Source of the DNA: a virus
Lineage: Duplodnaviria; Caudoviricetes
IMG/VR virus record: IMGVR_UViG_3300044535_001062
Location: 55 to 64,054 of that record
Length of the DNA stretch: 64,000 bases
Direction: 5' to 3' (one strand)
The notes under the pieces were generated by a model that saw only the letters and a program-made list of their open reading frames with translations, searched no databases and had not been told where the DNA came from. The position numbers and the translations under genes were made by a program. Below are positions 1,101-64,000 of this stretch, piece after piece (position 1 is the first letter of the stretch; every line of letters starts with the position of its first letter).

Positions 1101-1599
1101 CCGGCAAGTTCGGAGAACTTGTCGGAGGCTCGTAAGCGTGTCGCAAAATAAAATTCGAACTTCCCCTCTGGGGAATAACGGCCTTTATAGCCACTTCACA
1201 AACATTTGTTGGTGTACTTTGTGCCCTTTGGGCAGAGAAAAGGGCTTGAAATTTATTTCAAAGGGCTGAAAGCCAACGAAACCAAAGGTTTCAAGGTAGA
1301 AAAATGTTCATGTGTTTGATGCAATCAAACACCTCCAAACAACCTCAAAATATTGTCGATTTTAGTTGACAAAAAAAGCATTGTTCTTTAGAACAAACGC
1401 CAAAAAGCTCATACTCAAATACATAAGTATTTGAGAGGGCGATTTGCTGACCGAACCTCGCACGCCCGTCCGCCAGTTTTTCTGGAAAGAAAAACTTTTG
1501 CGGAGACGGAGGGATGTGGCCACGCTACCCCTACGTACGTGCACGCATTTCCTACCGCACATTTAATCTTTTTTTTAAAAAAATTTTACGTAGTAAAAT
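1101..1599. repeat. Array of short inverted repeats in non-coding DNA
   Basis: About 11 palindromes, e.g. 1101-1125, 1161-1175, 1312-1332, 1381-1396, 1414-1435, 1475-1496, 1583-1599. Confidence 0.8.
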
Positions 1600-1624
1600 A
1601 TTTTTAAGGTGGCCTATTAAAAAC

Positions 1625-1652
1625 TTGTAGACCAAACTGCCCTATAACTTTG
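1625..1652 (+). promoter_or_regulatory. Bacteroidota sigma-A promoter, likely the major early promoter
   Basis: TTG at 1625-1627 and TAACTTTG at 1645-1652 match the -33/-7 consensus (TTTG / TAnnTTTG). Confidence 0.75.
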
Positions 1653-1655
1653 TGC

Positions 1656-2005
1656 TGTCGATTTGCCAAAAACGACTCACGATTTCGGCAGACGACAAAC
1701 GTTCTTTCCCACACCGAGACTACACCACTGCAGGATACGGCAAAGCCGCTGTGAAGCGTTCTATCCGAAGTGATTGCCATCACTAAACAGAGTTTAGTCG
1801 GGTTCTTTGACATACATTTCCCTTCGGGAACAAGGGAAATTTGGGGCACTCCTTCGAGGATTGATGTAATCAATGCCAACAGTGCAATCTGTGATACCTT
1901 TGGTATCTGTTCTTATCCCTTGGGATAAGTTATCATCAGCGAAGTGAACCATAAGAAAGCAAACGAAGTTTGGTCTGACACCACAGGCTAAATTTATTTA
2001 GCCAT
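1656..2005 (+). ncRNA. Candidate structured leader / ncRNA of the early transcript
   Basis: Starts just after the promoter; no + strand ORF of 60 aa or more; at least 10 hairpins; two boxA-like motifs. Confidence 0.55.
1802..1814 (+). promoter_or_regulatory. boxA-like antitermination motif GTTCTTTGACATA
   Basis: Resembles rrn boxA (E. coli TGCTCTTTAACA); weaker copy CGTTCTTT at 1700-1707 directly after a hairpin. Confidence 0.5.
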
Positions 2006-2101
2006 GGTCGGTCTATGGTAGCCTTGCAGTGCTTGAGTCCGCTGCATTAAATTTGGGACGGCTCCCAAAGGGAGAGGGTTCGATTCCCTCACCGACCACC
2101 A
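2006..2101 (+). tRNA. Atypical tRNA / tRNA-like element (Leu/Ser type-II-like) with encoded CCA
   Basis: Acceptor stem GGTCGGT/ACCGACC followed by A-CCA; T-arm GAGGG-TTCGATT-CCCTC; long variable arm; degenerate D-arm; 8-nt anticodon loop. Confidence 0.7.
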
Positions 2102-2123
2102 AACCATTAACTAAAGTTAAACC

Positions 2124-2294
2124 ATGAAACTATTCTCATTCTTCATCATGACACTTTGTGTCACCGCATCGTCAATGTCGTTGATTAATCATTTTGATAA
2201 ATCAACCGACCAATCTGTGCTACTCGTGATTCTTTGTCACTTTGTGACAATTGTTACAATCGGCACTATTTCCTCAAACGTAGTCGAAGACTAA
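2124..2294 (+). CDS. Small membrane protein (56 aa, two hydrophobic segments)
   Basis: Read by hand: MKLFSFFIMTLCVTASS...VLLVILCHFVTIVTIGTISSNVVED. Confidence 0.5.
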   Translation: MKLFSFFIMTLCVTASSMSLINHFDKSTDQSVLLVILCHFVTIVTIGTISSNVVED

Positions 2295-2334
2295 TCCATT
2301 CAACCAACAAACCAATTTTTAATACTTAAAAATC

Positions 2335-3057
2335 ATGACAACCAAAAACATCACCACCGCTGAAGCTATTATAGCTTCAATCTCAGACATGAAAGTTTCA
2401 AGCCAAAAGGCTTACATCACCAAAAACATTAATCAGCAAGCTGATTACATTAAAACTATCGAAGATAAGTTTTACAACCGAAAGTGGAAGCACTACTATG
2501 GTGAACCTCTTAATGAAGAGGTTATCCTTAACGAAATTGCTCAACTCGAAGAGTTGGTAGGTGCTAAGGCTCTCCTTAACGGAGAGGACTGGCAAAAGGT
2601 ATCCGCTAAGAAGTCAGCTAAAGCTGTGAAGTCGAAAGCTGTGGTATCTGAAACCCCAAAGCCTACGGCTTCAGAAACGGCACTTGCCGAATTGACGAAG
2701 TCAATGACAAACCTCACCTCTCAACTCACAGAGTTGACCAAGGTAGTTGTAAAGAATTCAGTCGACATTGCTTCTATTCAGAAGCAAATTGAAACAATCA
2801 ATCAGCCCAAAGTTACTAAAGTAACTACACCTGTACGAAAGTCTCAGCCAAAGGCTGTTGCCTCAAAGAAAGCCGAAATTATCGAAGATAAGCCGGCAAT
2901 CAAGAAAACAAGCAAGTCTTTGCTTGAGGAATTGTTCGGTTCTTTCAGAACCGTGAAAGCCGACAAGCCAAAATCAACCAAGCCAAGCCGTAAGGAATAT
3001 AATCCTTACGGCAACAGCTACAAAGCAAAGAAAATGGCTTACATGGAAGTTCGTTAA
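2335..3057 (+). CDS. Early hypothetical protein with coiled coil and Lys/Pro-rich low-complexity C-terminus
   Basis: 240-aa ORF; TTAAAAATC-ATG start context. Confidence 0.8.
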   Translation: MTTKNITTAEAIIASISDMKVSSQKAYITKNINQQADYIKTIEDKFYNRKWKHYYGEPLNEEVILNEIAQLEELVGAKALLNGEDWQKVSAKKSAKAVKSKAVVSETPKPTASETALAELTKSMTNLTSQLTELTKVVVKNSVDIASIQKQIETINQPKVTKVTTPVRKSQPKAVASKKAEIIEDKPAIKKTSKSLLEELFGSFRTVKADKPKSTKPSRKEYNPYGNSYKAKKMAYMEVR

Positions 3058-3096
3058 TTGTAAACAATTAAAATCACCACTAATCAACACAACAAA

Positions 3097-3180
3097 ATGG
3101 AATTTTGTATCTTTTTCGGAACCATCTCATTCATCACCATAACGATTTTATCGTTAGCAACTTACTTTATCGAGAAATAA
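3097..3180 (+). CDS. Small single-TM peptide (27 aa)
   Basis: MEFCIFFGTISFITITILSLATYFIEK; A-rich leader. Confidence 0.45.
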   Translation: MEFCIFFGTISFITITILSLATYFIEK

Positions 3181-3308
3181 ATCTATGATTACACTATGCA
3201 TCATGCCCTCTTTCAGAGGGACTACAATCGAGACATTCAAAGCTTTGCTTACTTGTCTTGCAATCGACAGCACTTATCTTTTACCCATGTTTAACATCAT
3301 CTAAAATC

Positions 3309-3530
3309 ATGCAAAAACACATCCTACATTTTGACGAGTCTAAAGACTTGCTAGTCAGCTACACAATCGAACAAACCGATGAAATCGCTGCTTACACAGA
3401 GTATCTAGTGACGTTATACGTCAATGGCGAAGAAACTTTCAGCGAAAAAGTCCTTTCCGAGGATATGGACTTTGCCCATCGTCATGCTGAAACAATGTAC
3501 GAAGGCTATAAAGAGTATATCAAATCATGA
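3309..3530 (+). CDS. Early hypothetical protein
   Basis: Start moved to the AAAATC-ATG at 3309. Confidence 0.7.
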   Translation: MQKHILHFDESKDLLVSYTIEQTDEIAAYTEYLVTLYVNGEETFSEKVLSEDMDFAHRHAETMYEGYKEYIKS

Positions 3531-3769
3531 AATCAGAAAAAGAAAAACAACTAGAGCATCGCCTTGCAATGGTCAGTGATGACTTGCAATGTATCCGAAG
3601 ATTTATCTTCGAGAATGGCTTAGCGAAAACCTTTGCAAAGCCGACAGATGAATGCGATGAATGTTGGACTCACTTAGTGAACATTGAAATCGCCTGCTGT
3701 TTATCTAGTGACGAGTCACTATCCTGGAAACCATTCAACAAATTAAAACAACCAAATCAATCGAGATGA
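3527..3769 (+). CDS. Early hypothetical protein
   Basis: 80-aa ORF with ATGA coupling at both ends. Confidence 0.7.
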   Translation: MKSEKEKQLEHRLAMVSDDLQCIRRFIFENGLAKTFAKPTDECDECWTHLVNIEIACCLSSDESLSWKPFNKLKQPNQSR

Positions 3770-4482
3770 AAAACGTAGTTTTTAGACAAGGTGATACAAT
3801 CACCCTAGTTACCTTTGGTAAAACTAGTAATGAAAAAATCGCTGACAACAATGAGATTGTTGCTCAGACATTTCACTTCAGCCGGGAACAATACGACATT
3901 GCCCTTGGCAAAACAACCATGAAAGAATTTTTCTCTCATGATGCTAAGGTATGTTTCGATTGTCCCTTTGCTGTAAGCAATGGTGCAAAACTTACGGCTT
4001 GTTATACTCATAAGCCAATGCAATACATGGGGTTTCGTTCCTCTCTCAGAGCTATAGCAAAACGATATCCCGAGTATGGTCTGATACCTCAGCTTTCAGC
4101 TGATATCGTAGCTGATATTGTCAGCAAATGCTACGGACTTTATGTCCGCTTTGGTAGCTATGGTGAGCCAACGCTTATGCCGATTGACGTAGTCAAATCT
4201 ATTGTAGCTGTAGCGAAATCATGGACAGGCTATACTCATCAATGGATGAGTCGTCCAGAATATGCACCATATTTCATGGCATCAACACATAGTGTTGGAC
4301 AAGAAATGCTTGCAAGACAGCTCGGATATCGTAGCTTTGTTGTTACCAACAAATCAATCGATGGACTTGTTTCCTGCCCTGCCTCTAAAGAGATGGGCTT
4401 CAAATCAAATTGCTCGAAGTGCGGACTCTGTTCGGGGACTGAGGGCAAAGGTAAAAAATCAATCGTAATACTAGAACATTAA
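3766..4482 (+). CDS. Cys-rich phage protein, possibly Fe-S / radical-SAM-like
   Basis: CxxCPF...ACY, VRFGSYGEP, WTGYTHQW, CPAS...CxxCxLC. Confidence 0.6.
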   Translation: MKNVVFRQGDTITLVTFGKTSNEKIADNNEIVAQTFHFSREQYDIALGKTTMKEFFSHDAKVCFDCPFAVSNGAKLTACYTHKPMQYMGFRSSLRAIAKRYPEYGLIPQLSADIVADIVSKCYGLYVRFGSYGEPTLMPIDVVKSIVAVAKSWTGYTHQWMSRPEYAPYFMASTHSVGQEMLARQLGYRSFVVTNKSIDGLVSCPASKEMGFKSNCSKCGLCSGTEGKGKKSIVILEH

Positions 4483-11436: not shown

Positions 11437-11814
11437 ATGCGAGCCAAAAAGAAACGAGACAACATCGTGCAGTTGTTTGTTCGTGTCAGTGCTAATCAAC
11501 GACAGGCGATAAAAGACATCAGTAAGCAATACGGATACCAGGAGTATAGTCTATTGATTGATGATTTGGTTCACACGTATCTCAACAAGAGAAGACGAAG
11601 TATGGCAAAATCTATCAAAGAATTTACTGAAGGAGATACAGCAGTTCCGGTACAATTGGCACGAAACAACCACAGGTTATTGGTGGAGTATTGTTCAGCA
11701 ATGGACTTGTCTCCAAACATCGTAATACTTTCGATAATACGAGAGTCAGTTAACAAAATCAACAAACTTAAAAACACTAACATTGAAAATGAAGACACAA
11801 CCGAATCAGATTAA
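11437..11814 (+). CDS. Putative DNA-binding regulator with tandem ribbon-helix-helix-like units
   Basis: VQLFVRVSANQRQAIKDIS...LIDDLV and VPVQLARNNHRLLVEYC...VILSII. Confidence 0.55.
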   Translation: MRAKKKRDNIVQLFVRVSANQRQAIKDISKQYGYQEYSLLIDDLVHTYLNKRRRSMAKSIKEFTEGDTAVPVQLARNNHRLLVEYCSAMDLSPNIVILSIIRESVNKINKLKNTNIENEDTTESD

Positions 11815-12499
11815 ACGAGCTGTGTATTACACTAGGGTTTCTCACGAAAACCAAGTAGATGACGGCTCGTCTCTGGACAACCAACAAGACAGGATCGAAG
11901 CATTCTGTAAAATTCACAACTACGAAATCGTAAAGTCTTTTTCAGATCCCGGGGTATCCGGCAGAAAATTCGAGAACCGGCCACAGTTTATGCAAATGAT
12001 GGACATGGTAAAGAAAAAGCAAGTCGACATCGTTGTAGTTTACAGCCTATCTCGTTTCGGTCGTAACACCAAAGACACACTGAAATGGATTTCTTTTCTC
12101 GAGAACCACGGAGTATCTTTCTACACTCTAGACTTTCAGTTCGACACATCGACATCTCACGGCAAACTGATGCTCCAGATGATAGCAGCATTCGCTGAGT
12201 TCGAATCAAACCAGAGGGGTGAACTGATATCCTCAGTTATGAAGTATCTCAAGAAAGAAGAGAAAGTGTACTGCGGTCCGGTTCCTATCGGATTTGACAA
12301 GATAGATGGTAAACTCAAGGTCAACGAAAACGAAATGCAACTTGTGAGAAAAATTTATCTCTGGAACAAATCATTCGGACCTTTCAAAACCGCCATGCAT
12401 GCTAACGAAAACGGATACAGGTCAAAGAAAGGAGGCAAGTTTCACACCACAACAATTCAAAAAATTGTTAATAATGACCTTTATTCTAAGTATCTTTGA
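11789..12499 (+). CDS. Serine recombinase (catalytic domain plus recombinase DNA-binding domain)
   Basis: YTRVS...Q...SLDNQ, DPGVSG...RP, SLSRFGRN, AEFES, PIGF. Confidence 0.93.
   Translation: MKTQPNQIKRAVYYTRVSHENQVDDGSSLDNQQDRIEAFCKIHNYEIVKSFSDPGVSGRKFENRPQFMQMMDMVKKKQVDIVVVYSLSRFGRNTKDTLKWISFLENHGVSFYTLDFQFDTSTSHGKLMLQMIAAFAEFESNQRGELISSVMKYLKKEEKVYCGPVPIGFDKIDGKLKVNENEMQLVRKIYLWNKSFGPFKTAMHANENGYRSKKGGKFHTTTIQKIVNNDLYSKYL
12491..12498 (+). promoter_or_regulatory. Possible -7 promoter element for the replication operon
   Basis: TATCTTTG ending 19 nt before the ATG at 12518. Confidence 0.5.
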
Positions 12500-12739: not shown

Positions 12740-13076
12740 AAATCCTGTCGCCCGTATCCGGATCTACACTCCGCATGGATTTGTGTTTGACATACCCTTT
12801 GACTGGGTTTATGCTTCGATGAAGGACATCGACATAGACCAGGTTCCATACAATGTGCCAAACCACAACATCTACGATACAATCGAATACTTGAGGAAAA
12901 TGTCTTGGTGTGAAATCCAAGATAAACTACAGTTTGTCGGCATCATCGATAGTCCAATGATAGACTCTCTGGCTTCCTCGGTATTCGATTTACCGGATAG
13001 ACCATTCAATTACCCATTAACCGAACACAAAAATTTCAAATTATTCCTAAGTAAAAAACAAAAAGATGAAGACTAA
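12693..13076 (+). CDS. Hypothetical protein
   Basis: ORF within the operon; start position uncertain. Confidence 0.6.
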   Translation: MYQKETNQNKPKSSRKNPVARIRIYTPHGFVFDIPFDWVYASMKDIDIDQVPYNVPNHNIYDTIEYLRKMSWCEIQDKLQFVGIIDSPMIDSLASSVFDLPDRPFNYPLTEHKNFKLFLSKKQKDED

Positions 13077-29846: not shown

Positions 29847-32800
29847 TTATTCGTACTCTAGAATGTAGCCATCGAGACCAGTATTACTCTGACCAGCTTC
29901 TTTTTTCTGTTCGATTACCTTCTGCTGAACCTTTGTTGGCTTTTTTCCTTTTCCTTCATAATCTAGATCATACTGCTCTAGAATATTGGAATCATTCATG
30001 TTACTTTGATTATTAGGTGTAATAATAGCTGTACTGGGGTTTTCATTGAATTTTTTCATTTCTTCAATTAGACCAGTACTAAACTGAGCAAAGTAATTAG
30101 GATCTTTGAGTATTTTAGAAACAATATCCATGTCAATTTTATATGGAGTTTCGACCTGACCATTTCTTTGTTTTCTAACAAAGTTTTCATAATCCTCTCC
30201 GGTTTCTTGACCACCATAAGTAGCAGCAGGCAATTCACTCATGATACTACGCATTTCAACTTCCTGCATAGCAAAGAATCTATCCTTGTCTTCGGTATAC
30301 ATCTTGTATCTCTCTTTATCAATAAGAGTCCATGTACCAAGCATTGTTATTGCATCCGCAGCCGAGTAAATCTTAGACAACAAAGAACCAAGCTGTTCGT
30401 ATCCAAACAAAATATTAGGATTATTCATGCCACCAATAGGTGTTTTTTTATCTGCATCATAGTTTAGTTCAGAGTCCATATCAATGAACTTTTTGTAAAT
30501 ACCATTATCAATTATATACTTTTGAACTAAATCTCTACGAACGTTTGCATTGAATATCAAAAAATTATTGTATTCTTCTGTTCCAAGTTTATACTGGTTT
30601 CCGGATCTATCGACCAACATCTTGGGCAATTGAGTAGGAAGTGCTTGCCATGCATCGCCTTTTTTACAAGCCAAGTACACCAATGCTTCCCAGTCTGGGG
30701 TTTCATATCCGGCTACACCACGAGTTGCCCTGGTAATGTCGAATGTGTTGTATAAGAATTTGCCAAACATTGCTCCTTCCGGTGTCTGCAACACAGGCTT
30801 ACCAAACGCATCAACTTTTACTGGCATTTTATCGAGTTCTGCTTCAACAAACGGAAGATCAACCATCTTGTCCGGATCACCAATTGGCCAGCGTTCTGAC
30901 ATTTTAATACCCAATTTAGTAAAGAATGTGGTCAAGAATGGACTTTCTACTTTTTGACCAAACGCTTTGAATGGAGCGGCATCTTTCGCATCGTAATCAA
31001 CCACATATTTACGATTCATTTTGTCAATAAACGACAGTGAGTTAGGAAGTATTCCAGAAGATAGCGTGGTAACCAAATCTCCTAAACCAGTAGCTAACTT
31101 GTTATCATCTTCTGCATCTGCGATTGTTTTGGCAAAAGATTGTATACCACGTACAAACGTTTGGTCTAAGATGTAGCTACCAGCGGATCCATAGTTACCA
31201 AATATTGAGAAACCACCATCTTCCATAGCATCTTCAATAATCCCACGATTAACAAATCGATTTTTCTTATTGCCTTCTTTTTCTTTATACTCTCTGAACT
31301 GAACATATGTAGCAGCACCGAATACACCAAACCCACGATAGTCAATAATCAAATCGTTTTTCATATCCCACAATCCGCTCTGACGATTCTGATCACCTCT
31401 CAACATAGCTCTTAACAATGTGATGTTTATTGAGTACGGTCTTTCTAAAGAATATACGTAAGTATTTGATTTCTTTTTGTCTTCCTCATTTTCATCAGAT
31501 GGAGAACCGGTTGCTGCACCTGCTCTTGCGATAAGAGATGCGACATACTGAACACCAATTCCGACCAAGGCCCTAGCTAGGATTCTATCCATATCCCTGG
31601 AGTTAACTCTTGCTCTTTCAGACATTTCTGCACCTTCGATTGCCTTTCCGGAAACTTTTCTTTTTACAGACTTTGCTCCAATCACAGCCAATTTAGCAAG
31701 AGCATATTCCGGCATCAAAAATTCCATAAGTTCGATTGCATAGTTAGATGGAATTCTTGTGAACGGAACTACACCTGTTCCAATAAGTCTAAACATTCTA
31801 CTAATCAACTTACCATTGCCTTCATCTACCTTTGTTACTCTTTTTACACGACTCATCCAGTCAGTAATGGCGTTGTCATTAGAGTAAACAAAACGAAGTG
31901 CTTCTGTATTTGCATTAGCATTTCCATAATCAGAATTGATTTTGATGTATGCATCACGCATAGCATCCATCTCCTTTTTGATTGCAGCTTTTTCAGCAGA
32001 AGAGACAGCATTTGCCATTTTCTTTTTGAGATTCAAATAAGTAGGAGTGAATTTGAAATCTTCTGAAACCGCAGAGTAATAAGCGAAATCACGGAAAACA
32101 GCATCCACGGAAGACAAAGCTCTGAAAATAATATCCGGAATCACACCAAACGTACCCTGCATACCAGAAATCAACTGACCTTTTTTGCTGATTTTTCCAA
32201 CTTCATTCAATTTATATCCGTACTTGTCAGCAATTTCTTCATTTGTGAAATTGTTATAACCCAAACTTCTAGCAGCCAACGTAGTCCAAAGCTGTACAGA
32301 TTTTGACATTGCTTTAAATGAATTGAATCCCATCGCATAGTTTTGTGGAGTCTGATACGACTGAACAAGTGTTCCGTCCTTCAGAATACGGTAAGCTGTT
32401 GCAAATCCCTTTGGCATGCCATATGTAACTCCAGTCCAGAAATCACGGAGATTTTTCTTCGTGGTCGGTTCCATTTTGACACCAGTTACCAGTGATTTTA
32501 CTTTTGCAGGAACCCAGCTTATCGCAGAACTCAACGGATCTGTAACCAAGGTAACCATGAATTTAACAATGTTAGAGAGGTTGTTTACAGCCAATGACGA
32601 TGGTGTCATCAAACCGCCTTTTACGAAACTTATATACGTTTCTGTAACAGAATCATCTCCTTCGAATCTAGAACGCTCATTTACGTAGTTTTCGGCAGCT
32701 TGCATGTACTGATTGTACATGTCCTGGTTATACTCTAGATTTGTTTTGTTTGGGTTAAATCTAGATACTCCATATGGATTGGCTTCTGCATCAGCTTTAG

Positions 32801-35800
32801 ATAGTTTATACTGTTCTTTTGCGTTGTCGAGCTGACTCGCCAGATCAAGAATTCTCTTTTTTGCTTCCTCCGGGATAGTAAGTCCTTTTTTCTCGGCTCT
32901 ATTAAACAAGGCTCTAGTGCTAGATAAGAAACTATCTTTAGTCAGTTGTCTAAACAACTGAAGCATCCTACCAATATCAGTACCGGCTTTTAGAATTTTA
33001 GCATATTGATTTCTAACAAACTCTGGATCATCGTTTCTTTGTTTGGCATCAATCAAATCTTTGATAGCCATTGCCAACGGAACATCTCCGTTTTCAATTT
33101 GGTCAAACAGCGTCTGAAGAATTACCGGGTAATCAATAGGATCGATGTTCTCGATTTCGTCCATCAGTGCCTTCTGGTCTCTGACAACACGGATTGCTTC
33201 TTGTTCATTTTCAAGCACATCAGCTTCTTCTTTGAACATTCCACCCATTCTCTGCTGCTTTTCGATATTTGCACGCTGTCTCAGAGAGAAATAATCCTGC
33301 AAATCAACCGGATCAAAGCCAGTTTTCAGTAGAGCAGAATACAGCTCATCATCGGTTATTCCTTTGAATTCTGGATTAGCTTTAGTTTCATCGATAAATT
33401 TAGCAATTTCATCAAAGATATTCTGTGCCGGACTTTGTTTCTTAGGTGCTGCGGTGGTCTTTGCTTCACCCAACATTGAATCGTAGATTCTACGCATACC
33501 ATCACTCAGAGGTACATCAATTTCACTTCCTTGAATATACTGATAAATGTAGTACATCCATTTTTTAAAGTCTTCAAATATCTTCTGAAGCTTGCTGCTC
33601 GGAGCTTTGCCTTCTGCTAGGTATCTTTCAAATCCACGAGCAAACAACTCAGATGTTTCTCTTGTCCAAACATCATGACCTACACTTTGTAAAAATTCCA
33701 AACGTTCATCCGGTGTCAAGAACTTCTCACGAACGTGAGCTAATTCGTGCATAGCCGTAAATACGTTTGGATTGGTAAGTGCAAACATGATTGTTTTACC
33801 GGTATCCATATTCACAGTTGCACCATGAGCTCCAGTTGCGTTTCGACTAAACATTGCCATACCTTCAGCGACAATGCGATTGGTCTGAGGTGTCAAATCT
33901 ATGGCCAGAAAATCTGGATTAGGAACTATGAACTTAAGCTTTTCTTTTTCGTAAAAACTATCCTTTATTTTGTCAAATTCAGAAGAAAGAAAACTAGTTT
34001 CCTGTGAAGATAAAGATGTCAATTGACTGATATCTTTTAGTTTAAAATAAATATCTATTTCATTTTTATCAAATCCGCTTTTTTCTAATTCACTCACTAA
34101 CGATTCTTTACTCAGTCCTCTATAATTAGGATTTTCGTTTTTATTTTTAGTGTTTATTTCTTTAACCCTATTTGATACTTTACGGTATTCAGCAGATTCT
34201 TTTTTAACAATATTCACTACGTTTTGCACTCCTGCTTCAGAAACATAGCTATCGAAACTACCCATTTGATTCATGTAATTGAACAAAGGCTGTATTGCAG
34301 GATTCAAAGAATCTACAAAAGGCTGGTATCCAGTAATTTTAGTTCTGCTTGTCTGAAACCCAAGTTTTTGTTTTAAAGCTTCAATTCTTTTAGGTATAGT
34401 TTCATTATAAAATCTATTCAATCCGCTAACTTGTTTTTGAACATCTTCTTCACGTGAATCTGGTGTCATTTGTAAAACAACAGGAGCAATATTTGCCGGA
34501 TCGGTTATAATTATTCTTGACAATCCTTTATCGGCAGCAACTTTTAATAGTTGTTTTACAACCAAATCTGTAAATTTTTCTGTGTCTGAAAATGGAGTGC
34601 TTTCTTTTAATGCTGTTCTAATTTCTCTTGATATTTTTTCATAATCAGCTTTTTCATTTTCTGTCAAAACTATATCTTTATCAAAATAATCAACTATTAT
34701 TTCTCGAATATCAGAATTCTGCTGACTCGAACGATTCTTATAATAGTTCAATACACTTTTTATTTCTTTTGCGGTAGCTCCTCTTTCTTTCAATTCTTTT
34801 TTGTGTCTTTCTTGAATTGCATCAAGCATGCCCCACAAGGTATATCCGGGATAAAAATTTATTTTTATATAATCTAATTTTTGTTTAGTCTCTTTGTTTC
34901 GTATTTCCTGCGTCTGATCTGACTGCAGTTCATGTACAAACAAAGCCAAATTACCATTTTCATCTACTACAATTTCTGTTCTTGCGTGAGCCAATACATG
35001 TCTTGGATTTTTAGTGAAGTGTTTTCGATCTACATATTTCTGAACAAATGAATTTCTTTGTTCAACCAATGTCTGTAAAGCCCTATTAAGCTGTTCGTTT
35101 TCTTTTACAGCACTCGTGTATTCAGTTCTGAAGTTTCCATTTTCATCCAAAAGTTGGTCTTGAGGAATTTCAGCCGTAATCGACATCTTTTCTAGCAGTT
35201 TATTTATCATGCTATTAAGATTTTTGATATACGGATGATTTGTTACCGGAATAGTCAAAAGATGTTCTTGATATGTATTTGGTAATGCTGCATTATTAAT
35301 AAAGCCTTTGAAACCTTCAAATTCCTGTCCAAAATCAGCTTTGTAAAAATCTTTTCTATCGAGTTCTTCTTTTAATTCAACGTATATTTTTATTAATTTT
35401 TCAAGAGATTTTTTATTTTCGCTGTCTAAATTTAAAACTTGTCCGTCTTTTCCTATTGAATTTTTTATATCATTAATAGTTTTAGCTAATTCAGCATATT
35501 TGGCAGGATCCGAAGCAACATATTTGCTGTAAACCTCGAGTTCTTCGCTAGATATATCTGTCAAGTCTATAAGCCTGTAATTACCATCAGAAAAGTAAAC
35601 AAATACCCCTGCCATGCTAACACCTTCTGTTTCTTGTGTTAAGTCTAAAGCAACTTCTTTTGAAAGGTTTATAGCAGCAGAGTTTATATTTATATTATTA
35701 AGTATGAATACTTTTTCTACATTCCTAACCTGGGCTTCTGAAAACCTATCGTAAGAAACAAGTTCCGGTCTCGTAGTAGCCCAATCTAACAGTTCCTGTT

Positions 35801-38800
35801 TACTTATCGTTGTTACTGGATTTCCATCTATATCAACTCTAGAACGCATAGTTTCAATAAAGGCATCCAGTCCCATGAATTTAAGTTCCACTTCCTTTGC
35901 ACCTGCGGTAAGCAGTTCTTTTTTCAAGTTGTTTAGCTCTATTGGCTTATCGTTTCTAAACTTATCTAATATTGCAACATCAACATTATTATAAAACGCA
36001 GTACCCAAATTCTTAGCGTAGTTGTTACGCATCTGAATGGCTATGAACTGTTTCTTTTGCAAATCAGCCATTTGTTTAGCATTCATGTTCTTTGGCAATA
36101 CGTTCTGATCCAAAAATATACTAGCAGCAGATTTGTTATTAAGTTCTGGTTTGTTTTGATATTCAGAATATCTTTCTTCGAATTGTTGTTTAGATATTAA
36201 ATTTTGACCAACGAATGCGTCTTCAAGTTCTTGTTTTGTGAATTCTGAAACTGGCTTATACGAATCAAATACGCCACCCATATATTTTTCAATCCCTGGG
36301 AACATTTGATAGTATATTTGTCTAGCTTCATTATCTGATGAAACATCCTCTTGTAATCCGGCTAATGTTTTATCGACATCCAAACGACTCATTTCGTCAA
36401 CAATGTCAACCACACTAGATAAATAATTAGAAAGTTCACCGGCATCAAAAGTAAGCGTTTCTGGATCTCTATAAAGAGTATTTATTACGTTACCATACTC
36501 ATCTTCTACATCTACAGAACCATATCCAATTACATCCGAAATAGCATCCTGCAACTCGTTTGCACTTTGTAAAACTTCTAAAGCACTATTGTAATCAAAG
36601 CCGCCATTGAAATATTTTTCATCAGCAATTGACTGTTTTAAATCTTGGAGCATATTTACAACTTTTAGTGCTTTTGCTTTTTCCTCTTTGCTAAAATTAG
36701 GATCGTTACTTAGATTTTCAAGCCTAGTAATAGATATGTCAATAGCTTCCGATATGTCAGTTTTGTTGTTTTCAACATAATCAATTACAGCGTTAACAAC
36801 AGTAGCTTTATCCGGAACAACTACAGATTTAGTAACTAACTTAGGATCAAAATTATATGCAAAATTTTCATCTAGCATTTGTGATTCGTCTAGATTTGCT
36901 AGTCTCAAAGCAGTAGAGAAAAATATATTAACATTTTCTCCATTGCTTTTCATATCATCAATATGCTTGAATATTTTATTTTTGAATTCTTGAATTTCTT
37001 GATCTGACAAACCATATGTATATCCAATGTCATCAACAACGGTAGTGCTATTCAAATCTTTTGAATTCGAATAAAATAGAATTCTAGCCAAGTCAGAAAA
37101 TACACTCTTATACTGAGCATACTGGAATATGTTTTTGTCTTTGTAAAAATCTATCATATCGCCGATAGCATTTACTTGTGCCTCAGTTAATTTACCATTA
37201 GCTTGTAATTCCAAAGATGCAGAAAGAAGCGTGGATGGAGAAACAAAAGTATCCGCAGTAGCTGGAATATATTCGTTTTCAATAAACTGTGCACCCTTGC
37301 GAACAGCTCTTGTAAGACCAGGAAGTAAATCGTTTTGGTCTTTTATCGTAGCCATGTTAATTACGATATCTCCCGGGCGAGATACTTCGGTTTCTTTTGC
37401 GCCACGAGAGTAAGCAAAATTAGGAACAAACTGAAACGCAGGTGTTCCGGGTTCATATACAATCCTTACGTTAGCTAACTGTAAATCCGGATATCTCTTT
37501 ATAATTCTGTCGTCTCCAACAAGTTCCGATAATTTATATATAAAGTTCTTTTGATCAAATCCTTCTGCTTTATATGCTCTTCCCAAGAATGTACCAAAAA
37601 CTTTGACTACTTTATTGTCAATGAATATTGATTTTCCTGCACTACCTTTTACAGTATATCGTGACGAAAAAAAGTTTTTTTGCATGTTTCCAAATTCACC
37701 ACTAACTTCAAGCATGGGCGAAGTGGGAATAGGGTTACCAAACGCATCGAAGCTAATACCAGTGAGTAGCTCAATTCGATAAGTATCGATGCCTTTTTTC
37801 TGAAGTTCGAGTGCTTTGTTTAGATCAGCAGCAAGCTGTGCAGGAGTAAGTGAATTTTGAAAGAATGGAACCAAGCCTGGATTCTCAGACAACCACACGT
37901 TGAATTGCTCTTCGGTCATCTTCTTGGTTTCAATCATGTTGTTCATGTAATCATCCAGAGTCATTCCTGCTCTCTGTGCGTTAGCTTCAAATGCACGTAT
38001 AGCAATCTCAGCATTTGCTTTTCTTTCTTTTCTTGCTTTGATAGATTTAAAGGGATTCATGGACTTGAAGCCCCAGATATTACCTGCGTCACGATTCAAT
38101 TTTCTCTTCCACTTTGTACGAACCAAATCATTAGCTGCTTTTCTTTCAAGAGCTTCGCTATACTTCTGCATATCAACAGCATTTTCAGATTTAGTTTTTG
38201 CTTCACTTGCAATCTGTTGCTGTGTCATATTGGTCAAATCTACTCCAGTATTTTCAAGATATTCCACCGGAGTAATCTCACCTAGAATAAGTCGAACTGC
38301 ATCAACTTGTTCAGCATCAATTTTTTGGCCAGTAGCATCCAATATCGTAGCTACTTCGTTTCTTCTCATCTGTTCTTTAGTTACAGCTTCTGCTGTTTTG
38401 GCCATGTCAGCTTTACGGTTTTTTGCCGTAGTTTTTGACATCATCGTGCCTGTAAGAAACTTTTCAGTTTTTCCAAATGACTGAGAGCCAGTATATTTAA
38501 CTGCAACAAAGTTGTTGAAGTCGTTTCGCAGGTCACGGAACGATTGTATAGCCTCAGTATCGTTACCAAAGACTTCTTTGATTTTGTCAAGTTTATTTAG
38601 CAAAAAACTGGACACCAAGTTATCAATGGCATCTTCCTGTGTCACCTTGCCTTCGTCAACAAGTTTCTTCATTGTCTCGTTATAGAAATTAGAACGAGCA
38701 ACCGCTGCACGGAATTTATCTAGATTGTTTGTTTTTCTTTCACTAATAGACTGTCCAGTATTTGGATCGGTGTCTGTTTTTGTGAACAAACTTGAGTCGT

Positions 38801-41800
38801 AATCTTTAAGAAGAGGTGCGATATAATCAGCAATTTTTGCTGCTTTATTCCTAACGTTATTTGTAATCAAAGCTTTTCCGTTTAAGAAAAACGATGATAA
38901 ATTTATTTTAATCCTAGAGCCAATATTCCTAGATAGATCAAATGCTGCGTTTTTTACTTCGTCTGTAGTTTCATCTACGTTCTCGGCAATTCCAGTAAAC
39001 AATGCGATGCTTTGTGTGGCGTTTTCATTTAGAGTTCTTTTGAACTTAGCTTGGCTAGAAGCCGTTGCTTTGTCAACACGTTCTTTCTTTCTTCTAGAAG
39101 ATTCGTTCTGCGTAGTTTGATATACTACCTTTCCGTCACGTTCGTTTATCTTTTCTTCGGTCTCGGTGATACCAAGATTTTTACGAGCAATGGTCTCAGC
39201 TTTTTGTCTTGATACAATACCATTGTTCTTTGCTTTAGTTTCTACGTAATCTCTGGTTCTATCGTTTAATGGAACAAATTCATCAGTAGTTGATGTGAGT
39301 CCCCGGGCTTGAAGAACACCAGTCTCAGAATCGTATCGATAAACAACTTTATTATCTACAACACCATTCTTGTCTGCTACATAAAACTCTTCTCCTAAAT
39401 TACCTGTTCTTTTTTCTACTTTTACTTGATCGTTTCCAACTGAGCCATCTACCGAACTTCCGGTGGTAGTCTTCATGTTGTTTGGAGCATCTGCTTCTGT
39501 CATATTAACTGCGTATTCAACAGGAACAGTAGCTCTAGCTGTATTCTGATTTATGTTGACAGGAGCAGCAGCCACGGTCATGCCAGACGGTGTTGAGTTA
39601 TTTGCATTGGTATTTTTAATAGTATTATCCAAAAGGCGAATAATTTCTTCGTCTGTACTAGATGTATTTTCTCCATATACTTTGTCAAGATGCGCTTGAA
39701 ACTTTTGTCGTGTTGCATACAAAAGATTTAGATTTTCAAAATTTAAAGTAGAAAAAGTAAAACACATCAAAGCAGTAGCTCTCAAATTCAATAATCGTTC
39801 ATCTGTTGTAGTTCCATATGAATTCTTAGTTGCATCTACAAAATCATATCCATTTTGTTTTGCATATTCCCAAACATTAGAAAAAGTCTCTTCTGTCAAA
39901 CTAGCTGTACCCATGGACAGCTTTTTACCCATCACATATAAAAGAGCACCAATTTTATTCGATGGAATCAATTTTCCGAGCTTTAGTACTCCTGTAGTTT
40001 TATCAAATACCTTCGATCCAATTTTTTCTGCAACACCCATTCCTCCAGGTTGGCCAGATACTTCATAAGCAAAGAAAGGAACACCATAATCAACAACAGC
40101 TTTTTCAATTACATTAAATACTCCAATACCTGTTTTTCCATATCTATCAGCCATGTAGGACCTAACCGCTACTGCGGACTTTCCTGTGAAAAGTTGTTGT
40201 AAGTTCTTTGTCGCACCACTACCTCTCATGCTAATCAAAAATCCTATTTTCATAGATTCCAGTATTCCGTCTGAAATACTTTGGTTCTCTATGATTTTTT
40301 GTTGTGCATTTAGAACTTCCGGATTTACATACAATCCGTTTTCTCCTAAGAACTTTGCTGCACGAACAATTTCTTCATTGGGTGTAAGATATACATCATC
40401 TGAAAAAATGTTTTTTGTTTCATTGATTGTCTTTGAAAACGCACCGGAAAATACACCTTCAGATTCGCCCTTGGTCAAATCAACATTCAAATGAATAAGC
40501 GTATTTGCAGCTTTTAACTGAGCATCTACTTCGGTCATTTGTTGATTAAGTTTCATCAACTTATACGCATATATCTTTTGACCAAGCGAACGCATATCAG
40601 GTTGACCTAGCTGACCGAGCGTATTAGCATATAAATTAAACCAGAAGCCACGATTTTGTTCCAGTGCTGCATCTATATCGTCTTCTGTCATACCTGCCGG
40701 AAGAATAGCAGGTTGATCTAAAGATTGTAATCCAGAAGTCGATCCTAGTTTCGATATTTGATTTTCAATCCAATCTCTCTTTTCAAAAAGGACGTTTCGC
40801 TTTTCTTTGATTATGGCTAAATCTGTTTTCTTTTCAGCAGCTAACGTAGAGTTATATACTTTTTGTGCGAAATCTTTTTGTTCTCCTTCGTATCTTTTGC
40901 CGGAAGCATCGTAAAATTCTATACCTGATACCCCAAGCTCTTTTTTCAATTGTTCAATCTGGGATTTCAGACTATTAATTTGAGCCAAACTCTGTGGAGA
41001 TATCGCTGTCTTCTTTTTGTCTTTGGTTTGGGCAGTAGCCATGATATCACCAATCTGTTTGTACAAAGTAGCTATCTTCTGTTCTTTTGGTGACAGACTT
41101 GATATAGCTCTTTGATCCATGGCTTGATCATACTTGGAATATTCTATTCCAGTTGTAGGATCAACAAAGAAACCCTGTTTAAGTCTCTTTTCATTGTATT
41201 TTCCCTGTGTTACTTTAGTTAGATACTTGGTCTTATAGTATTCTAATCTTTCTGGAATCTCATCTCCTTCTAAACCAGATTGTTCTAGTTTTTTAACGAG
41301 TTGATCATAGTCAAAACTACCGTATCTAACCGTAGAATATTCTAGGTTTGGAGTGGTCGATCCAGCAAGGTCAACATCGTAGCTAACGTAGTTACCAACT
41401 TCTTGTTCCCAAACCAATTTACCAAGGTTTTCTTCTTCTATGCTAGCGATCGATTTGTTTTCACCATCGTTAAAAACAGTAGCTGCATTACCAATTAAGT
41501 CCTGGGCTATCAGATCATCTGCCTTGGCAATACGCATGTTTGTCTGATCTTCAGCACGAGCCAAACCAGCACCAAGAGCAGCATCGATGAATATGTTACT
41601 GTCCTTTAAAATCTTTTGTGCGCTTTCTAATCCGGCAGCTTTTATCTCTTTATTGTACTTTCTACCATAAGCATCACGATTAATAGGATCCAAAATGTAA
41701 TCGTAATACTTTTTGTAATCACTTATATTTTCGCCATAAGCAGTTTTGTTCAATCCCTTCTGAACAACCATGTCGAACATCTGTCTAGCTTGATAGTCTC

Positions 41801-42560
41801 TTTGAGCTATTTTGTATTTCTGAGACACTGGATCGACATTCATCTTGTCAAACTCTGGTCTATAGCCGGGCATTCCAACACCTACTTCTTTGCCGTAGTA
41901 TGTCTCATATTTTCTAGTAAATTCTGGATCAAATATAGTTCTACCTACACCACCTTCTGCAGCAGTTCTAAATGCACCTTTGTCGTACATGCTGACACCA
42001 CCGGACAAAACATTCTGAAAATCAGAATCGTTTGCTATTTTAAAGTACTGGCCAATTTTGTCTTTGTACTGAAAAAACAGCGGTCTTATATTCCCGGGGT
42101 TCTGAAGATAAGAATCCAATTCTTCAGAACTTCTTATACGTGAACCACCACCTAAATCAATCTGACCTGTTTCATCGTTTTTCAGAACCGTGTAAAGATT
42201 TTCCACGTTCATGTAACCCAACTCGCTTATTTTGGAAAGTTCTGTTTCTCGTTCCAGTTGACGAGCTTCTGCTTCCTTTATACCTTTTTTGAATTCTTGA
42301 GGTGTACCAAACAATTCAGTTGTTTTGGTACTGGTTTTTGTCAATAAAGATTTTTGCTCTGATGTGAGAGGTTTTACTTTAGCCTCTTCCTTGAATCCAC
42401 CTCCAGTCGTTATCCTGGGTTTAGGCTTAAGTTCATCTTCAGTGGTACTAGTGCCAACAGCACCACCGGTAAATCTCTTTAAAATGGCTTCTTGTTCTGG
42501 AGTAGTTTTTTTATTTGCAGAAACGATAGGTTTCGGTTGAGGTTTTTTATCTTCTGGCAT
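29847..42560 (-). CDS. Giant polyvalent virion / ejection protein (4237 aa) with zincin-like metallopeptidase domain
   Basis: HELAH...ELFARGFERY; HF...LAH.R...V.ELQSD; directly follows the ejection-type genes. Confidence 0.8.
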   Translation of the reverse strand: MPEDKKPQPKPIVSANKKTTPEQEAILKRFTGGAVGTSTTEDELKPKPRITTGGGFKEEAKVKPLTSEQKSLLTKTSTKTTELFGTPQEFKKGIKEAEARQLERETELSKISELGYMNVENLYTVLKNDETGQIDLGGGSRIRSSEELDSYLQNPGNIRPLFFQYKDKIGQYFKIANDSDFQNVLSGGVSMYDKGAFRTAAEGGVGRTIFDPEFTRKYETYYGKEVGVGMPGYRPEFDKMNVDPVSQKYKIAQRDYQARQMFDMVVQKGLNKTAYGENISDYKKYYDYILDPINRDAYGRKYNKEIKAAGLESAQKILKDSNIFIDAALGAGLARAEDQTNMRIAKADDLIAQDLIGNAATVFNDGENKSIASIEEENLGKLVWEQEVGNYVSYDVDLAGSTTPNLEYSTVRYGSFDYDQLVKKLEQSGLEGDEIPERLEYYKTKYLTKVTQGKYNEKRLKQGFFVDPTTGIEYSKYDQAMDQRAISSLSPKEQKIATLYKQIGDIMATAQTKDKKKTAISPQSLAQINSLKSQIEQLKKELGVSGIEFYDASGKRYEGEQKDFAQKVYNSTLAAEKKTDLAIIKEKRNVLFEKRDWIENQISKLGSTSGLQSLDQPAILPAGMTEDDIDAALEQNRGFWFNLYANTLGQLGQPDMRSLGQKIYAYKLMKLNQQMTEVDAQLKAANTLIHLNVDLTKGESEGVFSGAFSKTINETKNIFSDDVYLTPNEEIVRAAKFLGENGLYVNPEVLNAQQKIIENQSISDGILESMKIGFLISMRGSGATKNLQQLFTGKSAVAVRSYMADRYGKTGIGVFNVIEKAVVDYGVPFFAYEVSGQPGGMGVAEKIGSKVFDKTTGVLKLGKLIPSNKIGALLYVMGKKLSMGTASLTEETFSNVWEYAKQNGYDFVDATKNSYGTTTDERLLNLRATALMCFTFSTLNFENLNLLYATRQKFQAHLDKVYGENTSSTDEEIIRLLDNTIKNTNANNSTPSGMTVAAAPVNINQNTARATVPVEYAVNMTEADAPNNMKTTTGSSVDGSVGNDQVKVEKRTGNLGEEFYVADKNGVVDNKVVYRYDSETGVLQARGLTSTTDEFVPLNDRTRDYVETKAKNNGIVSRQKAETIARKNLGITETEEKINERDGKVVYQTTQNESSRRKKERVDKATASSQAKFKRTLNENATQSIALFTGIAENVDETTDEVKNAAFDLSRNIGSRIKINLSSFFLNGKALITNNVRNKAAKIADYIAPLLKDYDSSLFTKTDTDPNTGQSISERKTNNLDKFRAAVARSNFYNETMKKLVDEGKVTQEDAIDNLVSSFLLNKLDKIKEVFGNDTEAIQSFRDLRNDFNNFVAVKYTGSQSFGKTEKFLTGTMMSKTTAKNRKADMAKTAEAVTKEQMRRNEVATILDATGQKIDAEQVDAVRLILGEITPVEYLENTGVDLTNMTQQQIASEAKTKSENAVDMQKYSEALERKAANDLVRTKWKRKLNRDAGNIWGFKSMNPFKSIKARKERKANAEIAIRAFEANAQRAGMTLDDYMNNMIETKKMTEEQFNVWLSENPGLVPFFQNSLTPAQLAADLNKALELQKKGIDTYRIELLTGISFDAFGNPIPTSPMLEVSGEFGNMQKNFFSSRYTVKGSAGKSIFIDNKVVKVFGTFLGRAYKAEGFDQKNFIYKLSELVGDDRIIKRYPDLQLANVRIVYEPGTPAFQFVPNFAYSRGAKETEVSRPGDIVINMATIKDQNDLLPGLTRAVRKGAQFIENEYIPATADTFVSPSTLLSASLELQANGKLTEAQVNAIGDMIDFYKDKNIFQYAQYKSVFSDLARILFYSNSKDLNSTTVVDDIGYTYGLSDQEIQEFKNKIFKHIDDMKSNGENVNIFFSTALRLANLDESQMLDENFAYNFDPKLVTKSVVVPDKATVVNAVIDYVENNKTDISEAIDISITRLENLSNDPNFSKEEKAKALKVVNMLQDLKQSIADEKYFNGGFDYNSALEVLQSANELQDAISDVIGYGSVDVEDEYGNVINTLYRDPETLTFDAGELSNYLSSVVDIVDEMSRLDVDKTLAGLQEDVSSDNEARQIYYQMFPGIEKYMGGVFDSYKPVSEFTKQELEDAFVGQNLISKQQFEERYSEYQNKPELNNKSAASIFLDQNVLPKNMNAKQMADLQKKQFIAIQMRNNYAKNLGTAFYNNVDVAILDKFRNDKPIELNNLKKELLTAGAKEVELKFMGLDAFIETMRSRVDIDGNPVTTISKQELLDWATTRPELVSYDRFSEAQVRNVEKVFILNNININSAAINLSKEVALDLTQETEGVSMAGVFVYFSDGNYRLIDLTDISSEELEVYSKYVASDPAKYAELAKTINDIKNSIGKDGQVLNLDSENKKSLEKLIKIYVELKEELDRKDFYKADFGQEFEGFKGFINNAALPNTYQEHLLTIPVTNHPYIKNLNSMINKLLEKMSITAEIPQDQLLDENGNFRTEYTSAVKENEQLNRALQTLVEQRNSFVQKYVDRKHFTKNPRHVLAHARTEIVVDENGNLALFVHELQSDQTQEIRNKETKQKLDYIKINFYPGYTLWGMLDAIQERHKKELKERGATAKEIKSVLNYYKNRSSQQNSDIREIIVDYFDKDIVLTENEKADYEKISREIRTALKESTPFSDTEKFTDLVVKQLLKVAADKGLSRIIITDPANIAPVVLQMTPDSREEDVQKQVSGLNRFYNETIPKRIEALKQKLGFQTSRTKITGYQPFVDSLNPAIQPLFNYMNQMGSFDSYVSEAGVQNVVNIVKKESAEYRKVSNRVKEINTKNKNENPNYRGLSKESLVSELEKSGFDKNEIDIYFKLKDISQLTSLSSQETSFLSSEFDKIKDSFYEKEKLKFIVPNPDFLAIDLTPQTNRIVAEGMAMFSRNATGAHGATVNMDTGKTIMFALTNPNVFTAMHELAHVREKFLTPDERLEFLQSVGHDVWTRETSELFARGFERYLAEGKAPSSKLQKIFEDFKKWMYYIYQYIQGSEIDVPLSDGMRRIYDSMLGEAKTTAAPKKQSPAQNIFDEIAKFIDETKANPEFKGITDDELYSALLKTGFDPVDLQDYFSLRQRANIEKQQRMGGMFKEEADVLENEQEAIRVVRDQKALMDEIENIDPIDYPVILQTLFDQIENGDVPLAMAIKDLIDAKQRNDDPEFVRNQYAKILKAGTDIGRMLQLFRQLTKDSFLSSTRALFNRAEKKGLTIPEEAKKRILDLASQLDNAKEQYKLSKADAEANPYGVSRFNPNKTNLEYNQDMYNQYMQAAENYVNERSRFEGDDSVTETYISFVKGGLMTPSSLAVNNLSNIVKFMVTLVTDPLSSAISWVPAKVKSLVTGVKMEPTTKKNLRDFWTGVTYGMPKGFATAYRILKDGTLVQSYQTPQNYAMGFNSFKAMSKSVQLWTTLAARSLGYNNFTNEEIADKYGYKLNEVGKISKKGQLISGMQGTFGVIPDIIFRALSSVDAVFRDFAYYSAVSEDFKFTPTYLNLKKKMANAVSSAEKAAIKKEMDAMRDAYIKINSDYGNANANTEALRFVYSNDNAITDWMSRVKRVTKVDEGNGKLISRMFRLIGTGVVPFTRIPSNYAIELMEFLMPEYALAKLAVIGAKSVKRKVSGKAIEGAEMSERARVNSRDMDRILARALVGIGVQYVASLIARAGAATGSPSDENEEDKKKSNTYVYSLERPYSINITLLRAMLRGDQNRQSGLWDMKNDLIIDYRGFGVFGAATYVQFREYKEKEGNKKNRFVNRGIIEDAMEDGGFSIFGNYGSAGSYILDQTFVRGIQSFAKTIADAEDDNKLATGLGDLVTTLSSGILPNSLSFIDKMNRKYVVDYDAKDAAPFKAFGQKVESPFLTTFFTKLGIKMSERWPIGDPDKMVDLPFVEAELDKMPVKVDAFGKPVLQTPEGAMFGKFLYNTFDITRATRGVAGYETPDWEALVYLACKKGDAWQALPTQLPKMLVDRSGNQYKLGTEEYNNFLIFNANVRRDLVQKYIIDNGIYKKFIDMDSELNYDADKKTPIGGMNNPNILFGYEQLGSLLSKIYSAADAITMLGTWTLIDKERYKMYTEDKDRFFAMQEVEMRSIMSELPAATYGGQETGEDYENFVRKQRNGQVETPYKIDMDIVSKILKDPNYFAQFSTGLIEEMKKFNENPSTAIITPNNQSNMNDSNILEQYDLDYEGKGKKPTKVQQKVIEQKKEAGQSNTGLDGYILEYE

Positions 42561-63880: not shown

Positions 63881-64000
63881 AATGGCAGACGAAACTTTAT
63901 TCGCAGACGGATTCGATGAGGCTATCGTAGGTATAGACTACATCTCTTATCCACCACGTATCATTTACGACAAAAACAAAATGGTTGAAATCCTGGTTGA
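63881..64000. repeat. Terminal direct repeat / circular assembly overlap (copy 2)
   Basis: Matches 1-120 with one mismatch. Confidence 0.95.

Follow-up and report, generated by a model that had tools for sequence, protein, structure and literature searches.

Transfer RNA (tRNA)-shaped processing signals are well known from eukaryotic long non-coding RNAs, mitochondria and RNA plant viruses, and both mascRNA at the end of MALAT1 and MEN-beta and the mitochondrial 'tRNA punctuation' serve as tRNA-like modules for 3'-end processing. To our knowledge, such signals have barely been described in DNA phages apart from genuine tRNA clusters and a handful of small RNAs. A review on ribonuclease P (RNase P) names phage M3 RNA, the P1/P7 C4 RNA precursor, plant-virus tRNA-like structures, messenger RNAs (mRNAs) and riboswitches as non-tRNA substrates of the enzyme (PMC11143913). 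In the phage RNA GOLLD, the linker sometimes houses tRNAs, according to two reports (bioRxiv 10.1101/2024.12.08.627333, PMC5737381). Here we analyzed a 64,000-nucleotide (nt) stretch of tailed-phage DNA (hereafter the window; positions 55 to 64,054 of IMG/VR record IMGVR_UViG_3300044535_001062), in which an initial annotation had pointed out a tRNA mimic at 2006–2101. Comparison with relatives indicates that this element is a conserved tRNA-shaped RNA module and not a decoder. Our preferred reading, to which we assign a probability of roughly 45%, is that it would act as a tRNA-like punctuation signal, at which RNase P and 3' processing enzymes split a leader RNA from the early mRNA.

The element combines an acceptor stem and a T arm with two further 7-bp hairpins (hairpin 1 and hairpin 2), and its stems are free of mismatches in the window (Table 1). 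The 7-bp acceptor stem, the discriminator A, the encoded CCA and the canonical T arm described by the initial annotation were all recovered in place, as was the defect of the D arm, where a GG-containing linker stands and a D stem is absent. Acceptor and T stems stack coaxially over 12 bp, the T loop being intact, and 4 nt separate hairpin 2 from the T arm. RNAfold returned this cloverleaf-like fold both as the minimum free energy structure and as the centroid (-37.0 kcal/mol, z = -2.18, with an equally good fold in 4 of 200 shuffles). A strict search for a 7-bp Watson-Crick acceptor stem adjoining a 5-bp T stem with a TTCRANN loop found a single site in the window, and at least one site in only 2 of 300 simulated 64-kb sequences. 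When G-U pairs were allowed, the window gave four matches, the other three being weak and at least one of them lying inside a gene. One such loose match, at 12932–13002, was set aside as chance (it lies in coding sequence, and its fold, at z = -0.83, does not surpass that of shuffles). The fold of the element is real and improbable by chance.

We compared the region 1300–2400 with contigs of three lake DNA runs (X14, X19 and X20). The X19 and X20 contigs span the element with no differences inside it, and the X14 contig shows two (2054 T>C and 2067 A>G), which replace a U-A pair of hairpin 2 by C-G. All three runs carry the element, this compensatory pair is the sole change inside it, and for these reasons the element appears to be neither an assembly error nor the product of simple decay. 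Two relatives span the site. The first, L018, is a metagenome contig 97% identical overall, which also has C-G at 2054–2067 and differs within the T arm solely at loop position 2084, a position that varies in real tRNAs. The second, L019, is syntenic, with about 80% nucleotide identity and shared proteins 36–82% identical, and carries the element at L019 3555–3647. Here the outer parts of the element are unchanged: 2006–2019 (14 nt) and 2072–2099 (28 nt) are identical, including the T arm and the first seven nucleotides (CTATGGT) of the GG linker. The coaxial acceptor/T stack and T loop are thus invariant in all three sequences (window, L018 and L019) save for the one T-loop base of L018. The 52 nt between 2019 and 2072 have diverged with indels in L019, and two hairpins are still formed. 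Hairpin 1 of L019 lies in the same place as that of the window and has a 5-bp stem with a 6-nt loop, AAGTCA (by eye, a change on both sides in two pairs and on a single side in a third). Hairpin 2 keeps five of its seven pairs, the pair 2053–2068 having changed from U-A to C-G. The L019 copy folds as acceptor stem, T arm and hairpin at -31.5 kcal/mol (z = -2.65). Overall, the structure appears to be conserved under selection. As to the two peculiarities singled out by the initial annotation, the architecture lacking a D stem is kept in both relatives, and the 8-nt loop of hairpin 1 is kept in L018 only. Because this loop has 8 nt in the window, as it does in L018, against 6 nt in L019, no anticodon loop is conserved; hairpin 2, for its part, is capped by 4 nt. 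The suspicion that relatives might carry an ordinary tRNA at this site, or that the copy arose by misassembly, was not borne out: L018 and L019 are both without one, and three DNA runs contain the element.

Tools for tRNA detection reject the element. ARAGORN called no tRNA or transfer-messenger RNA (tmRNA) gene in the window, L018 or L019, and Rfam at its gathering scores gave no match for the element. The Rfam tRNA model RF00005 reached 18.9 bits (gathering score 29, E = 0.23), the top Rfam score of the L019 copy was 21.4 bits for the tRNA-Sec model (threshold 47), and the sole match of the tmRNA model was a 12.1-bit fragment over the T arm. Infernal aligned the T arm with high posterior probability and filled the anticodon-arm slot with hairpin 2, not hairpin 1. 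The hairpin with the 8-nt loop and the arm TTTGGGA-CGGC-TCCCAAA are both present as initially described, but their labels 'anticodon arm' and 'variable arm' are therefore ambiguous; whichever way the labels are assigned, a 7-nt anticodon loop on a 5-bp stem is missing. Set against a canonical tRNA, the acceptor stem and T arm conform, and the D arm, the anticodon arm and the score depart from it, the 3–4-bp D stem being absent from L018 and L019 as well. With no D stem, scores below threshold and a hairpin 1 loop that is not conserved, the view of the initial annotation that this is not a normal decoding tRNA holds.

Which functions could such a molecule retain? The acceptor/T stack, the T loop and the elbow are the features recognized by RNase P, by 3' processing enzymes and by the CCA-adding enzyme; decoding and most synthetases depend on the part that drifts here. 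We favor a role in processing because the acceptor stem, the T arm and the GG linker are invariant while the middle drifts; the GG linker could pair with the T loop and so close the elbow. Among the three functions put forward at the outset (a processing signal, a decoy and a frameshift-type tRNA), the first would fit the conservation pattern best. U(-1), G1-C72, A73 and RCCA are positive determinants for bacterial RNase P, and the context of the proposed cut is favorable, with U(-1), G1-C72 and A73 in place and CCA present in two of the three sequences.

In the path that we propose from the observed structure, conservation pattern and position, transcription, its promoter and both cleavages are predictions. 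A promoter near 1620–1652 would start a transcript running through a structured leader of about 350 nt and the element into the early genes. Host RNase P would cut at 2005/2006, so that the leader acquires a defined 3' end while transcription continues, this end consisting of the hairpin 1986–2003 plus two bases or of a 12-bp hairpin with a 10-nt tail. Processing at the 3' side, after 2098–2101, would then free an early mRNA with a 22-nt A-rich unstructured leader. The element lies 22 nt 5' of the first early ATG, a distance too short for a promoter between the two. The genome has a Shine-Dalgarno-like core at just 2 of 52 gene starts, and its upstream regions are A-rich and G-poor, a pattern which together with established knowledge suggests a Bacteroidota-type host. 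The same pattern suggests that a long structured leader would hinder initiation in this host, so that its removal could matter.

The sequence further indicates that a conserved and structured non-coding region, about 350 nt long, terminates with the element at its 3' end, a context that the initial annotation had not seen. The element forms the last part of a region poor in open reading frames (ORFs), 658–2123. From 1640 to 2005 the window is 82.6% identical to L019 (308 of 373 columns), and the four flanking ORFs reach just 60.8–74.1% nucleotide identity. Indels in the leader relative to L019 measure 1, 2 or 5 nt; as none of these lengths is divisible by three, the leader does not represent a conserved reading frame. 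Pairing was scored on a 612-column alignment, with a structure that joins RNAalifold helices of the A/T-rich stretch and the leader to the acceptor stem, hairpin 2 and the T stem, leaving out hairpin 1. In this structure, which was derived from the same three sequences on which it was scored and draws on two informative lineages, 97.9% of 419 cells were paired and 13 of 142 pairs had changed on both sides. The corresponding number was 4.4 +/- 1.7 in shuffles (0 of 500 reached 13) and 0–1 in slid controls. At the 5' side, a motif resembling the consensus TAnnTTTG, which we take to be the Bacteroidota -7 box, is identical in L019 together with its flanks, and the RNA would start near 1657, where strong conservation begins. 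Evidence for the plus strand comes from the element's own orientation, from G-U pairs and from the downstream genes, which run in the same direction. At the 3' side, two hairpins are mutually exclusive, sharing 1986–1995, and since neither varies among the three sequences, covariation does not discriminate between them. The pair, spanning 1966–2003, may be a structural switch just 5' of the proposed cut.

Table 1. Features of the tRNA-like element, its leader and its immediate surroundings (window coordinates).
Feature	Position	Strand	Details
Candidate promoter	1620-1652	+	TAACTTTG at 1645-1652, TTG upstream, A/T-rich stretch before; predicted
Conserved structured non-coding leader	1655-2005	+	about 350 nt; putative, from identity, indels, covariation and folding
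Alternative hairpin	1966-1995	+	12 bp, three G-U pairs; minimum free energy structure in window and L019
Hairpin at leader 3' end	1986-2003	+	8 bp, perfect; ends 2 nt 5' of element
U at position -1	2005	+	directly 5' of acceptor stem
Acceptor stem	2006-2012 (GGTCGGT) with 2091-2097	+	7 bp, all Watson-Crick; 5' strand same in L018 and L019
Linker with GG	2013-2024	+	12 nt, CTATGGTAGCCT; occupies place of D arm; unpaired in centroid fold
Hairpin 1 ('anticodon arm')	2025-2046	+	7 bp including one G-U; 8-nt loop CTTGAGTC
Linker TTAAA	2047-2051	+	TTAAAT starting here invariant in all three sequences
Hairpin 2 ('variable arm')	2052-2069	+	7 bp, loop CGGC
T arm	2074-2090	+	GAGGG / TTCGATT / CCCTC; 5-bp stem, 7-nt TTCRANN-type loop, G-C closing pair
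Discriminator A	2098	+	followed by CCA 2099-2101; CTA replaces CCA in L019
A-rich spacer	2102-2123	+	small hairpin TTAAC-TAAA-GTTAA at 2107-2120; first early ATG at 2124

Several observations count against a punctuation signal of this kind. The promoter is a candidate, being a match to a consensus. A scan for terminator patterns returned hairpin 1, with a T-rich stretch after it, as the sole site here. None of the listed sequencing runs that carry the stretch is an RNA run, and the metatranscriptome compared matched only the 42-nt A/T-rich segment 1564–1605, leaving the element uncovered. Shuffles fold less well than either strand of the leader (z -2.6 and -3.7), so that folding energy leaves the strand undecided. 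The encoded CCA reads CTA in L019. A stable hairpin possibly ends just 2 nt 5' of the proposed cut, where the RNase P protein normally contacts a single-stranded leader (PMC11143913). The same review reports that RNase P processes T4 dimeric precursors with spacers shorter than 5 nt, so structured RNA beside the cut is tolerated (PMC11143913).

The element is furthermore known from three sequences in two diverged lineages. Six more distant relatives (L003–L008, 63–65% identical in the ORF 3766–4482) have a non-coding stretch at the same place and no tRNA-like element there, which also weighs against our reading and suggests that the element is not essential to the phage group. A motif scan of these six found none, ARAGORN called no gene at any of seven relatives' loci (7/7), the Rfam tRNA model matched none of five relatives' records at E up to 1, and nhmmer with leader alignments gave nothing below E = 2 in the six. 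Similarly, exact DNA patterns from the element and leader had no match among viral contigs, nor had a protein-anchored search of viral contigs with the upstream gene 63319–63864, and positions 1500–3500 of the window had none in the phage collection in distant-mode search. A 21-nt match to hairpin 2 in L003, L004 and L007 was dismissed as chance, lying in sequence that by eye looks coding (perhaps for a methyltransferase). The IMG/VR contig L002, which is near-identical, starts within the last 12 nt of the element and is uninformative on its body.

The most interesting alternative overlaps with the processing signal. The element could belong, as an integral domain, to a new and large structured phage RNA that also comprises the leader, about 450 nt together and possibly reaching up to 1008, its elbow and acceptor serving assembly, docking or stability beyond cutting. 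The leader is conserved, structured and directly abuts the element. Farther upstream lies a second conserved non-coding block, 1008–1340 (L019 2588–2912), in which about 80 nt (1008–1090) are nearly identical to L019 and a long hairpin at 1095–1130 of 16 bp (12 bp in L019) has kept its shape with a changed sequence, that is, covaries. The phage comes from lake water, and GOLLD and ROOL phage RNAs often occur near tRNAs according to two reports (bioRxiv 10.1101/2024.12.08.627333, PMC5737381). On the other hand, the GOLLD and ROOL models gave no match up to E 10 at positions 650–2200 of the window or up to E 5 in L019 from 2020 to 3680, and no Rfam family, including tmRNA, RNase P RNA and self-cleaving ribozymes, matched the region in the window or in L019. 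A hairpin-ribozyme match at 1934–1975 was too weak to keep (14.9 bits, against 65). Two informative lineages give no reliable global fold, and the leader could equally be a cis-regulatory 5' untranslated region or partly a DNA-level element. We consider it rather unlikely, though worth bearing in mind, that the leader (perhaps with 1008–1340) and the element represent a new class of large phage RNA, whose attached 'tRNA' would be reduced to acceptor, T arm and elbow. If this were true, what GOLLD and ROOL need from neighboring tRNAs would be a processing or docking module and not decoding.

A decaying class II tRNA gene (Leu-, Ser- or Tyr-like) that has lost its D arm and drifts without function would explain why tRNA detectors reject the element, why its middle diverges fast, why CCA is lost in L019 and why more distant relatives lack the element altogether. 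We regard this as improbable, since lineages about 20% apart share the absence of a D stem, the stems of the window copy are free of mismatches and the changes within stems are compensatory. The ends, moreover, are identical over 14 and 28 nt, against 61–74% identity in flanking genes, and neither of the two closer relatives spanning the site, L018 and L019, has an intact tRNA. Somewhat less probable still is a decoy or trigger-blocker for tRNA-directed host defenses or for another tRNA-binding host factor. Phage tRNAs do counter tRNA-cleaving defenses, as two reports state (PMC10264068, PMC11555353), and the element stands at the start of the early region. Bait for an anticodon nuclease, as proposed in the initial annotation, should keep one loop, however, and the loop varies among relatives in both length and sequence, which weakens the idea, although other tRNA-binding targets are conceivable. 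A comparison of 33 of the 85 predicted ORFs with Pfam or PHROGs turned up no tRNA-related enzyme or protein.

It is very unlikely that the locus acts at the DNA level, as an attachment site that originated in a host tRNA gene, or that it is a pared-down tmRNA-like domain. The phage has a small serine recombinase gene at 11783–12499, which would suit integration, but both halves of the 'tRNA' are present and not the 3' part alone. The 22-nt 3' end has eight matching stretches among species-representative genomes, and the five that were checked fall in four tRNA-Phe genes (Myxococcota or Proteobacteria metagenome-assembled genomes) and one cyanobacterial tRNA-Val gene, from unrelated phyla and all lacking a long extra arm. 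The tRNA-like domain of tmRNA typically has a stemless D loop, but pair 3-70 is U-A, not G-U, and ARAGORN reports no tmRNA; a tmRNA-like tag frame from 1960, examined by eye, was rejected for want of a typical ending, a G3-U70 pair and an ARAGORN call. Hardly tenable, finally, is a working tRNA, either a Ser(UGA) or Leu(GAG) decoder or a four-base +1 frameshift suppressor reading through its 8-nt loop: U-U-G-A-G in the loop with U in a position-33-like place, the discriminator A and the long extra arm would suit it, but a D stem is missing, the hairpin 1 stem has 7 bp, the large phage genes are open under the standard code, and the change of the loop in length and sequence, to 6 nt in L019, weakens the frameshift proposal in particular.

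The surroundings of the element hold further features. The 22-nt spacer and start codon that follow it are the same in L019 at 27 of 29 positions (93%), though the following ORF differs. A spacer motif of about 20 nt occurs at 2102–2123 of the window, at L002 13–36 and 221–245 and at L019 3648–3670, and the gene behind it varies: L002 has an extra small ORF between its two copies, and L019 has a different, 95-aa ORF. The site right after the element thus looks, from these comparisons, like a hot spot of gene swapping. Runs of at least five C on the plus strand, of which the whole window has 13, cluster at 925–1082. Similar clusters, with 4–5 runs per approximately 160–200 nt, lie in non-coding DNA of all relatives about 1 kb 5' of the first early ORF (L019 2555–2662, L007 3617–3785, L004 2729–2928, L003 3046–3225 and L006 148–346) and could be an origin or a protein-binding array. 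The segment 1564–1605 matches short contigs of much greater depth (about 110–134) from lake runs including the metatranscriptome, in which it stands in another context, beside the apparent end of a tRNA gene of another organism.

The window covers nearly all of a 64,054-nt virus record rated 94% complete and classed as linear. Bases 1–120 are repeated at 63881–64000 with 99% identity, so the genome, of about 63.9 kb, is circularly permuted or terminally redundant. Its genes include those for a primase-helicase, a family A DNA polymerase, a portal protein and virion proteins. As the top match of the DNA polymerase among 50,697 phage records compared is just 34% identical, the phage appears to have no close cultured relative. 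An ORF of 4,237 aa on the minus strand (29847–42560) has no Pfam match and one short PHROG match of unknown function; its neighbors are virion genes, and it may encode a giant virion protein. At least half of the sampled words of 1300–2400 were contained in 20 of 24 listed sequencing runs. These 20 are all lake or freshwater metagenomes, under 19 study codes, and 7 of them are possibly the source of this DNA.

As a punctuation signal, the element would amount to a natural 'minimal tRNA', with a frozen acceptor, T arm and GG linker and a drifting anticodon region, which separates the requirements of processing from those of decoding. It also draws attention to a phage leader RNA, conserved and structured, that RNA family libraries do not contain. 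For a phage of a host that does not rely on Shine-Dalgarno sequences, it suggests a route by which one promoter could yield both a stable non-coding RNA and an unstructured early mRNA.

Among known systems, mascRNA and mitochondrial tRNA punctuation resemble this locus in that a tRNA-shaped module directly follows a long non-coding RNA, whose 3' end an RNase P cut would make, and only the acceptor/T-arm part is strongly tRNA-like. In contrast to these systems, the module here belongs to a DNA phage of bacteria, has protein genes after it, scores 14.3 bits with the Rfam mascRNA model (gathering score 42.5), and its cleavage is predicted. The tRNA-like domain of tmRNA, including its reduced mitochondrial form, likewise has an acceptor stem, a T arm and a D loop without a stem. 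The element differs from it in its 3-70 pair, which is not the G-U alanine identity pair, and in that ARAGORN detected no tag frame and pseudoknot set. With class II tRNAs (Leu, Ser and Tyr) and tRNA-Sec it shares a long extra arm and a 7/5 acceptor/T stack, and with bacterial Leu and Tyr tRNAs the discriminator A; unlike them it scores below threshold, lacks a D stem and has a 7-bp 'anticodon' stem and a loop of 8 or 6 nt. The M3 RNA of phi80, the P1/P7 C4 precursor and the T4 dimeric precursors are phage RNAs that offer an acceptor/T-like stack to host RNase P, in some cases with structured RNA a few nucleotides upstream, as here (PMC11143913). Those substrates are small RNAs or true tRNAs, and the present element differs in its four-way tRNA-like junction, its lack of an anticodon function and its leader of about 350 nt. 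From GOLLD and ROOL the locus is set apart by the missing Rfam match, by a linked element that is not a functional tRNA and by a leader of about 350 nt seen in two lineages. Like them, it pairs a large conserved structured phage RNA with a tRNA-type element, and as with GOLLD, which was first seen in lake metagenomes, the phage that carries it comes from lake water.

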